Shown here piece after piece: positions 47,984 through 49,476 of a stretch of DNA of 64,000 bases (its first letter is position 1; each line of letters opens with the position of its first letter). The translations under genes and the position numbers were made by a program. Source of the DNA: Promethearchaeia archaeon (GTDB lineage Archaea; Asgardarchaeota; Lokiarchaeia; Sigyniarchaeales; SOKP01); NCBI GenBank assembly GCA_046483985.1, contig JAWOCD010000011.1, positions 1 through 64,000 of the forward strand, written 5' to 3'. Under the pieces are notes generated by a model. That model saw nothing but the letters and a program-made list of their open reading frames with translations. It did no database searches and was not told where the DNA came from.

Positions 47984-48406
47984 ATGAAAGGAAAACAGAA
48001 AAAAAAGAATGAAAAAGAAAAAGAAACCAAAGAATATTGGAAAGAGAAGTTAACAGAAGATCAATACAGAGTCCTTCGGAAAAAGGGAACTGAACCTCCA
48101 TTTACGGGTAAATATTGGGATAATCATAAAAATGGTATTTATAAATGTGCCGCATGTGGGGAACCCCTATTCGAGTCTAAAACAAAATTTAAATCTGGTT
48201 CGGGATGGCCTAGTTTCTATAAACCAATTAAAGATGAAAATATAGATGAAAAATCCGATACAAGTCTGGGAATGAGACGGACGGAAGTTCTATGCAGTAA
48301 CTGCAAAGGGCATTTAGGACATATATTCAAAGACGGACCAAAACCAACAGGATTACGATATTGCGTTAATTCAATTTCCCTTGATTTTGAAGCCAATGGA
48401 GATTGA
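47984..48406 (+). CDS. msrB: Peptide methionine-(R)-sulfoxide reductase
   Basis: [41 protein letters not shown] (Cys form). Confidence 0.96.
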
Positions 48407-48656: not shown

Positions 48657-49022
48657 GTGACATCAATTAAGGAAATCAAGTTTAATATCAGCATCCCCTT
48701 GAGCGGGTTGCGAAAAGGGAACGAATTTACTGTACACGTAAAGGATGATGCAAGCTTTCTGGAAGCTTTAGCTATTGTTGATAAGCAAGATAAAGCACAT
48801 CCAGAAGACTCCATTTTCCCGATCTACGAGGATTACATCTACAGTTACTTGCAACTCTTTTGGGATCCGAGGGATAACGTCTTGTACGAAGATTGCGGTA
48901 TTTCGGCATATGCTCCCAATGAGGAAGGATTATTGAGGGAATTTCAACCTGTTGCAGAGAATCCCGATTATGTCATTGCCGACGGTACTTATGTATATTT
49001 GGAACCAGACGCAGGATGTTGA
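48657..49022 (+). CDS. MoaD/ThiS/ubiquitin-like beta-grasp protein ending in -AGC (possible Sec readthrough)
   Basis: Strand-strand-helix start (EIKFNISI, EFTVHV, SFLEAL). The C-terminus VIADGTYVYLEPDAGC parallels MoaD-type L.DGD.V...P...GG. It is followed by TGA TGA. Confidence 0.65.
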   Translation: MTSIKEIKFNISIPLSGLRKGNEFTVHVKDDASFLEALAIVDKQDKAHPEDSIFPIYEDYIYSYLQLFWDPRDNVLYEDCGISAYAPNEEGLLREFQPVAENPDYVIADGTYVYLEPDAGC

Positions 49023-49120
49023 TGAAATAAGGTGAAAACACGCGTGGACAAGGGCACCTTAAAACAATATATAAGAGATAAGTTTGATAAGGAACATGAA
49101 TACTTTTCTCATTATTTTCA

Positions 49121-49190
49121 AGGGTCATGAAGGGATGAGATCTTTCAATAAATGGTTGTGAAAGATTGACCGCGGGACAGCCTCCCGTAA
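49121..49190 (+). promoter_or_regulatory. Candidate eukaryote-type SECIS hairpin
   Basis: AUGA (49135-38), 11 nt, AAA (49150-52), then GA (49168-69); helix gatctttca/tgaaagatt. Confidence 0.4.
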
Positions 49191-49476
49191 TTAAATATCT
49201 CACTAAAGATTAGAAATACAACAAGAATTTTAAGAGCTATATAGTCTCTTGCTATAATAATTTTTAATCATATATATCCAGATATCCCGCTTCTTTTCAG
49301 AATTGAGGGTAGATATGATTAAAGTTGCTATAAATTAGAAAAACTGGAATTATAAAGTGTAAAAAAACTTATGCAAAAAAATATAGAAATTTGATCTCTC
49401 ACAATTTCGTAATACAAGAACAAAAAACCCAAAATTCACATCGATTTAAATACTTTTGTTGGTTCTTTCTATTTAG

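Follow-up and report, generated by a model that had tools for sequence, protein, structure and literature searches.

A probable selenoprotein family of Lokiarchaeia with two adjacent selenocysteine codons on a beta-grasp scaffold

Introduction

Where does translation end in a gene whose open reading frame (ORF) runs into two consecutive TGA codons? The question is raised by a locus in the stretch of DNA analysed here (the window), 64,000 nucleotides of a Promethearchaeia archaeon genome (GenBank assembly GCA_046483985.1, contig JAWOCD010000011.1, positions 1 to 64,000 of the forward strand). From a GTG at 48657 an ORF of 121 codons leads to ...Pro-Asp-Ala-Gly-Cys, and TGA TGA follows next, in frame, at 49020-49025. 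A first-pass annotation had proposed a new selenoprotein here, with the first UGA read as selenocysteine (Sec), the second as the stop, and a hairpin resembling a eukaryotic selenocysteine insertion sequence (SECIS) downstream. The GCA GGA TGT TGA TGA run on which it rested is as described: it occupies 49011-49025 and shares the frame of the 121-codon ORF. We arrive at a longer product. The gene at 48657-49130 is with high probability a selenoprotein gene, given the combined sequence and structure evidence for decoding, fold and family conservation, and judged from sequence both adjacent TGAs are almost certainly read as two neighbouring selenocysteines. The predicted product is ...Gly-Cys-Sec-Sec followed by a 34-residue helical tail, 157 aa in total. 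The parts of the gene are as follows, the GTG start being a prediction from the ORF call and the homologue alignment.

48657..49130, + strand: full predicted selenoprotein coding sequence; GTG start, 157 codons, Sec at codons 122 and 123, UGA terminator at 49128-49130
48657..49019, + strand: predicted beta-grasp (MoaD/ThiS/SAMP-like) domain, residues 1-121 (AlphaFold2, VIA-align, Foldseek)
49020..49025, + strand: adjacent UGA pair, Sec122-Sec123, invariant across the family loci
49026..49127, + strand: C-terminal tail of 34 conserved residues, predicted helical (pN/pS, alignment, model helices)
49128..49130, + strand: terminator UGA, ending 4 nt before the AUGA of the SECIS core and aligned next to the TAA stop of homologue L009

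Decoding of the UGA pair

The pair does not change across the family. TGA-TGA was found in all 32 loci that were read, with nearby codons varying around it (Gly as GGA, GGG or GGT, Cys as TGT or TGC, the preceding codon widely), which answers a check proposed with the first-pass annotation, namely whether the codon after Cys is always TGA in homologues. All 30 loci retrieved read G-C-U-U plus the conserved tail, and members from other families at only 24-33% identity still read PDAGC-U-U. Among the matches listed from 138 genomes, each one that spans the site carries at least two in-frame TGA codons, sometimes three; only three of the matches listed are free of TGA and all of these stop short of residue 93, nearly all others covering residues 3-155. 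The end of the family's frame is mostly TAA (TAA 24, TAG 1 and TGA 6 of 31 loci, the TGA ends lying close to the SECIS), similar to stop usage in this genome in frames of at least 300 codons (TAA 1075, TAG 262, TGA 244; n = 1581). Elsewhere in the genome TGA serves as a normal stop, as in those 244 long frames and in an MsrB gene upstream in the window.

Sequence behind the pair evolves as protein. Over 30 loci the ratio of non-synonymous to synonymous polymorphism (pN/pS) of 32 tail codons was 0.265 in the ORF frame versus 1.06 and 1.37 when read out of frame; the 22 codons 5' of the TGA pair gave 0.306, like the tail, with variation mostly at third positions. The conserved in-frame stretch after the pair is about 33-37 codons long across homologues, and the tail consensus at the 30 loci is EKVKNRLDIGxFKxxIRKKYGKxNExFAHYF. 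In Sec-free relatives (a Bathyarchaeial group and a variant, P0015) head and tail form one uninterrupted ORF. Separate translation of the tail is unlikely: the sole ATG, contained in TGATGA, belongs to another frame, and past the TGAs most homologues offer no in-frame start codon. From the invariant pair, the in-frame selection on the tail, the continuous Sec-free ORFs and the lack of a tail start codon we infer that both UGAs are decoded. The first three of these points speak directly against a product ending in -Gly-Cys-Sec with the second UGA as its stop, and that part of the earlier proposal is given up; what it had raised only as a caveat, a frame staying open for about 35 codons if both UGAs are read, is close to what we find.

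With TGA taken as a residue the frame is in fact open for 34 codons past the pair. It then meets a third TGA (49128-49130), which the first-pass annotation had not singled out, and 6 codons later a TAA. The third UGA aligns one codon past the TAA stop of the closest homologue, L009 (82% identity), and many Lokiarchaeial selenoprotein genes end in a UGA adjoining the SECIS, for which a minimum-distance rule has been proposed (Mariotti et al. 2016, PMC4989117). We read the third UGA as the stop because of this alignment, this habit and this rule.

Some irregularities were seen in the tails of single loci. In L036 (G241:C78) the conserved Gly of RLDIGxFK gives way to a third in-frame TGA, maybe an extra Sec or a sequencing change, and three further matches of the best group, from the same genus (g12) as L036, likewise have three TGAs. 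L007 (3440-3470) and L008, which share one sequence and come from two metagenome-assembled genomes of one species, have one A fewer than L006 in a run of A within the tail, and their frame shifts after ...TIIRK, through either a homopolymer assembly error or a real frameshift.

The SECIS element

The sequence downstream of the gene holds a SECIS of the kind described as lokiSECIS:

49130..49191, + strand: lokiSECIS (covariance model R1, covariation, minimum free energy (MFE) fold)
49132-33 with 49170-71, + strand: SECIS lower helix, 2 bp (MFE fold)
49135-38, + strand: SECIS core AUGA (sequence, alignment)
49139-47 with 49159-67, + strand: SECIS stem, 9 bp (MFE fold)
49148-58, + strand: SECIS apical loop, 11 nt (MFE fold)
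49168-69, + strand: SECIS GA (sequence, alignment)
49172-77 with 49183-88 (span 49172-88), + strand: 3' hairpin, 6 bp (MFE fold; cggga/tcccg at 49173-49187)

The AUGA at 49135-38, the AAA of the loop, the GA at 49168-69 and the second hairpin at 49173-87 had all been recognised in the first-pass annotation and lie where it placed them. The MFE fold of 49128-49192 (-18.2 kcal/mol, z = -2.1) adopts the SECIS shape. Every homologue looked at keeps the TGA pair, the tail and the hairpins, well beyond what chance would give. A near gap-free consensus of 31 downstream regions consists of AUGA, a 9-bp stem, an 11-nt loop that opens with an A-run and closes with (A)G, and GAC; the lokiSECIS as published has the same architecture, including the loop-final G and the GAC (Mariotti et al. 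2016, PMC4989117). The earlier description of a eukaryote-type, SECIS-like hairpin thus matches the lokiSECIS, and MFE fold, covariation and covariance model agree on it. In the family the first UGA lies 112-142 nt from the core; in the window the distance is 115 nt from the first and 112 nt from the second UGA.

Covariation, the second check that had been proposed, was assessed over 31 loci and 17 pairs, with a 3-bp lower helix and the 5-bp 3' hairpin added to the stem, and against 500 shuffles. The structure covaries: 91.4% of cells are paired versus 40-56% with slid partners, and compensatory double changes occur in 11 of the 17 pairs. On four of five measures none of the 500 shuffles matched the observed value, and on the fifth, the count of further pair types, 11 of 500 did. 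An alternative ggtca/tgacc pairing that would hide the GA had been a worry; it is not conserved in the homologue alignment.

A covariance model (R1) built from this family's element was searched against the whole 4.06-Mb genome. It scored 74.7 bits in the window and 78.2 and 65.2 bits at two paralogues. Further matches, at 38 and 34 bits, lie 24 nt past, or overlapping, the ends of two PF02662 genes; these are VhuD/FlpD (PF02662, 147 and 146 bits) with two in-frame TGAs each, and both therefore belong to a known Asgard selenoprotein family. Among the six most distant family loci R1 scored two and missed four, and at L057 a downstream AUGA...GAC hairpin can be seen by eye, so R1 is probably too family-specific. 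The Rfam SECIS models gave no match at gathering thresholds or at E <= 10, the same as was reported for lokiSECIS, which published tools miss.

Two side observations concern related structures. The 3' hairpin (49172-49188) begins a few nt past the GAC and covaries within the family; its loop starts with UUGC in most members and is CAGCC in the window, and by eye such a hairpin is also present in this genome's VhuD SECIS (the regions concerned are C32:152487-152547, C85:93565-93633 and C8:27193-27252). The SECIS-like sequence at C8:27193-27252 (R1 31.9 bits) sits 23 nt past an orphan 96-codon ORF, C8:26882-27169 (+), equal to L051:1190-1477, which has a hydrophobic, membrane-anchor-like N-terminus, an acidic linker and a single TGA in ...GG-TGA.... 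As a selenoprotein this ORF is unsupported, being without a homologue in 80 genomes of the family.

Selenocysteine machinery and paralogues

The genome encodes Sec machinery, as the first-pass annotation had suggested should be confirmed. A tRNA-Sec (61 bits, above cut-off; called SeC with anticodon tca by ARAGORN) lies directly upstream of SepSecS (488 bits, above cut-off), and an EFSec-like gene (236 bits, just below the bacterial SelB cut-off) is 4 kb from this pair. SelD (169 bits, above cut-off) itself contains one in-frame TGA, and a PSTK-like gene was found below cut-off (E 4.7e-46).

Two paralogues of the window gene, each with its own SECIS, are present in the same genome:

C18:75270-75713 (L046:1582-2037), - strand: paralogue with motif D-A-D-U-U
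C101:86803-87246 (L048:1038-1502), + strand: paralogue with motif S-U-G-U-U, three Sec codons; adjoins an ArsR gene

Tandem pairs of paralogues were seen in several other genomes.

Distribution and relatives of the family

A six-frame search with the read-through protein as query covered 400 genomes of the phylum. The family was present in 138, comprising 117 of the 134 genomes of the window's own taxonomic family and 21 from six neighbouring families of the same order and class, and was not found in the other 242 genomes by this search. A word-index protein search returned three relatives only, annotated as hypothetical, 121-135 aa long and ending in Gly-Cys; on their four contigs Cys-TGA-TGA, about 33 conserved codons, the AUGA...AAA...GA hairpin and the second hairpin are present in all.

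Sec-free relatives came to light when 1.8 billion representative proteins were searched with a profile, among them a Bathyarchaeial group, about 130 aa in length, with the motif G-[GP]-C-I-[TS]-[DE], and the variant P0015. The Bathyarchaeial Sec-free proteins separate from the Sec-Sec proteins in an unrooted maximum-likelihood tree, each set forming a clan of its own (support 100/99), and the conserved Cys is present in both. The Sec-free variant P0015 (T-C-V-S) nests inside the Sec clan and represents one secondary loss of Sec-Sec; directly after it lies a NifU_N/IscU-like gene (L061:1274-2216).

Protein fold

The first-pass annotation had called the product a beta-grasp protein, and AlphaFold2, Foldseek and VIA-align concur. 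The AlphaFold2 model, from a 24-member alignment (predicted local distance difference test 91.3, predicted template modelling score 0.88), is a beta-grasp with strands at 4-12, 21-29, 80-87, 93-96 and 112-117 and a helix at 34-47, followed by three short tail helices at 122-126, 132-143 and 151-154. Foldseek matched beta-grasp/ubiquitin-like folds exclusively, with weak E-values. The top VIA-align matches are SAMP1 (4hro, Z 7.5), the transcobalamin beta domain (7.3) and CysO (4n6e, 7.3), followed by HVO_2177 and MoaD-like proteins (Z 6.0-6.6); with a maximum of 7.5 these values are middling and indicate the fold, not kinship. By sequence the protein matched no Pfam family at E <= 1, PF02597 included, no NCBIfam model and no PDB entry.

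Aligned to the model, the sulfur carriers have their C-termini at residues 119-122, and the Cys-Sec-Sec therefore occupies the position of the carriers' Gly-Gly.

Gene neighbourhood

At 38 family loci the ORFs lying up to 1.5 kb away were clustered and the cluster representatives annotated; these loci come from related genomes, and the counts below are not independent.

CxC protein, about 95 aa, directly upstream on the same strand: 18/38 loci
YdjM membrane protein: 13/38 loci
HgcB-like 2x[4Fe-4S] ferredoxin: 11/38 loci
HgcA-like corrinoid protein: 8/38 loci (E 2e-41, below cut-off)
ACR3: 7/38 loci (TIGR00832, 288 bits, above cut-off)
ArsR: 6/38 loci
Thioredoxin-type ArsC-like protein: 6/38 loci (below cut-off)
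Cation-efflux protein: 5/38 loci

Of the 38 loci, 26 have one or more ars- or HgcAB-type genes or the CxC protein nearby. This CxC protein is modelled with a thioredoxin fold and its CxC at the start of helix 1, and in two genomes it is fused to the C-terminus of ArsM (NF008823, 358 bits, above cut-off).

In the window's genome a cluster of such genes lies on contig C74 (L064, C74:58000-70000), and looks like a candidate metal(loid) methylation system:

L064:1673-3355: methyltransferase fused to an HgcA/CdhD-like corrinoid domain
L064:3416-3763: HgcB-like ferredoxin
L064:7374-7697: ArsR
L064:7710-7991: thioredoxin-fold CxC protein, no family model
L064:7994-8455: DGC-domain protein

In the window itself, a Cys-type MsrB gene (PF01641, E 1.4e-55) is found on the same strand 250 nt upstream (47984-48406, +) and ends in TGA. 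This adjacency occurs in the window only and is absent from the conserved neighbour clusters of the 38 loci; it may be incidental or a redox hint.

Proposed function and alternatives

We propose the following course of events. The lokiSECIS in the 3' untranslated region (49130-49191) would recruit the archaeal Sec elongation factor and Sec-tRNA, and the two UGAs of the pair, which precede the AUGA core by 115 and 112 nt, would be read as selenocysteine; the third UGA, 4 nt before the core, would be too close for recoding and would therefore end translation. Gly-Cys-Sec-Sec would then follow the last beta-grasp strand and precede the short helical tail, and the Cys-Sec-Sec triad could offer a three-ligand site for soft metal(loid)s, that is As(III), Hg(II) and methylated forms. 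Within arsenic-resistance and HgcAB-like methylation clusters the protein may act as a carrier or sequestering partner, possibly exchanging cargo with the thioredoxin-fold CxC protein encoded upstream.

The role in soft metal(loid) handling is suggested by the ArsM, ACR3, ArsC, ArsR and HgcAB-like neighbours in other genomes. Three thiolates are the typical ligands of As(III), and vicinal cysteines serve in ArsD, whose ligands are Cys12/13/18, and in HgcB. Metal binding by the triad is put forward on this background, on the gene clusters, and on reviewed selenoproteins: several from bacteria are connected with resistance to As and Hg, and Sec has been proposed to bind the metal in them (PMC13188914). 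Given the neighbours in other genomes, soft-metalloid binding or a redox role is likely. Selenoprotein identity and soft-metal(loid) carrier function taken together fall, in our estimate, a little short of an even chance. The fuller idea is more tentative: an obligate Sec-Sec beta-grasp protein that would constitute a new class of metalloid carrier, shuttling As(III), Hg(II) or methylated species among ArsM or HgcAB-like enzymes, the CxC partner and efflux pumps.

Several observations weigh against the combined proposal of identity and function, besides the non-independent counts and the middling Z values given above. The window copy lies outside any ars cluster, among MsrB, an acyl-CoA ligase and unknown ORFs, and has its own AT-rich upstream region. 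The HgcAB-like/ArsR/CxC cluster on C74 has no copy of the selenoprotein gene adjacent to it, and no consistent ars context was seen at the Sec-free Bathyarchaeial relatives. Nor was a Cys aligned to Sec found in the Sec-free homologues, which have Ile-Thr/Ser or Val-Ser at the two positions; these relatives keep the Cys only, without Cys-Cys, so the customary Sec/Cys pairing is lacking and a three-ligand site is not ancestral.

A rather less probable alternative, though one we take seriously, is that the same Cys-Sec-Sec selenoprotein works as a redox relay, cycling between selenol and selenenylsulfide or diselenide to re-reduce thioredoxin-type ArsC, ArsM and, in the window, MsrB. The order Gly-Cys-Sec is that of the thioredoxin reductase motif Gly-Cys-Sec-Gly, and vicinal chalcogens of the Gly-Cys-Sec type can form an eight-membered ring; here a second Sec stands in place of the final Gly, the motif is internal rather than penultimate, and there is no flavoprotein domain. 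The relay would fit the window copy's position downstream of MsrB on the same strand, the thioredoxin-coupled type of ArsC and the thioredoxin-fold CxC protein among neighbours elsewhere, and the fact that most known prokaryotic selenoproteins are thiol oxidoreductases (PMC13188914). However, MsrB is a neighbour in this window only, beta-grasp is not a known thiol-oxidoreductase fold, and the ACR3, ArsR and HgcAB-like neighbours favour metal(loid) handling over general redox. Metal(loid) carrier and redox relay are not mutually exclusive, and present evidence separates neither from the other.

It is improbable, if conceivable, that the selenoprotein has another role altogether, such as storing or delivering selenium (as a carrier of perselenide or diselenide for SelD), service as a corrinoid accessory of the HgcA-like protein, or something not yet imagined. 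The transcobalamin beta domain matches the model on a par with the sulfur carriers (Z 7.3 versus 7.5), HgcA-like corrinoid neighbours occur at 8 of the 38 loci, and fold and motif position recall sulfur-carrier proteins. Against this, neither selD nor any other gene of the Sec machinery was seen linked to the family at any locus, and the structural matches are those of a generic beta-grasp.

Readings that do without selenocysteine fare far worse. Read-through by near-cognate insertion of Trp or Cys, or by a local code change, with the hairpin as a read-through stimulator, we hold to be very improbable: some pipelines do translate the TGAs as Trp (P0014, P0011, P0035), yet TGA is a normal stop in this genome, the Sec machinery is present, the hairpin has every lokiSECIS feature and is common to VhuD selenoprotein genes, and a sense codon at either TGA was never seen in the main clade, save in one Val-Ser variant. 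Slightly less credible still is an ordinary 121-residue protein with a double stop and an untranslated tail and hairpins, as standard gene callers annotate it and as tandem stops do occur, for such a pair would drift among TAA, TAG and TGA yet is TGA-TGA in all members, and the tail is conserved by codon position in the ORF frame, is fused to the head in Sec-free homologues and has its helices packed with high confidence in the AlphaFold model.

Comparison with known systems

The closest parallels for the decoding are the Lokiarchaeial lokiSECIS genes (VhuD/FrhD, HdrA, VhuU/FrhA and PrxL; PMC4989117, PMC11227280), which have the same 3'-untranslated SECIS architecture and, like the gene described here, several UGAs per SECIS and a UGA terminator beside it. 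The present family differs from them in being unlisted, in its directly adjacent Sec codons, in the lack of any Cys-for-Sec homologues among those found, and in its covarying 3' hairpin.

For the scaffold the comparison is with the carriers MoaD, ThiS, CysO, SAMP and Urm1, which share the beta-grasp and bear their reactive group after the last strand, at the Gly-Gly (MoaD-like Z 6.0-6.4). In contrast, the window protein has Gly-Cys-Sec-Sec for Gly-Gly, no PF02597 match and 34 extra residues. With the chain running 34 residues past the motif there would be no free C-terminal carboxylate for adenylation or thiocarboxylation there, and activation like that of a ubiquitin-type modifier would not be possible.

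ArsD and the C-terminal Cys-Cys of HgcB likewise provide vicinal chalcogen ligands plus a third in As/Hg clusters, and the hand-off role proposed here is the same as theirs. The likeness is one of analogy, in ligand logic and ars context: here the fold is beta-grasp instead of thioredoxin-like or ferredoxin, and selenols would take the place of thiols. Membership in the ArsD family is not indicated, as the fold differs and the window protein matches no Pfam or NCBIfam model.

The bacterial MbdU, SaoB/SaoC and ArsM selenoproteins (PMC13188914) are also linked to As/Hg resistance with Sec as a proposed soft-metal ligand, whereas they have a bacterial SECIS inside the ORF, other folds, and the motifs CU, UxxU or UxxG. 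None of the NCBIfam models of bacterial metal-linked selenoproteins matches the window protein, and the '_UU' in NCBIfam names denotes two separate Sec residues, not an adjacent pair (review table, PMC13188914).

Five selenoprotein families were reported from Lokiarchaeia by Mariotti et al. (2016, PMC4989117). A later survey, which searched over 400 Asgard genomes for homologues of known families, counted seven (Huang et al. 2024, PMC11227280), and the published Asgard families are SelD, FrhA, HdrA, FrhD, PrxL, AhpF-N and DsbA-like; a 2026 review repeats the Asgard families and tabulates more than 110 prokaryotic ones (PMC13188914). A beta-grasp protein with Cys-Sec-Sec is absent from all three lists, and further full-text searches for it were also empty. 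No published list, Pfam or NCBIfam model covers the family, in keeping with the first-pass suggestion of an unknown selenoprotein class. New are the protein family, its adjacent Sec pair and its gene context; the recoding mechanism is already known.

The family is a widespread addition to the short Asgard list, occurring in most genomes of one Lokiarchaeial family, often as two or three paralogues. Homology-based surveys would have missed it because it lacks Cys homologues and every gene caller cuts it short. A Cys-Sec-Sec on a ubiquitin-like scaffold in arsenic and HgcAB-like clusters suggests selenium-based handling of As and Hg in anoxic sediments, a route that would bear on environmental metalloid methylation. 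If the metalloid carrier proposal is true, Lokiarchaeia use selenium for detoxification chemistry, and their Sec machinery would also decode two directly adjacent UGAs efficiently from one eukaryote-like SECIS.

Annotation

For annotation pipelines, the 'hypothetical 120-aa proteins' of this family need extension through both TGAs. Some public gene calls (P0014, P0011 and P0035) already run full length, with TGA rendered as Trp to give GCWW or WGWW at the motif, and could mislead homology-based annotation.

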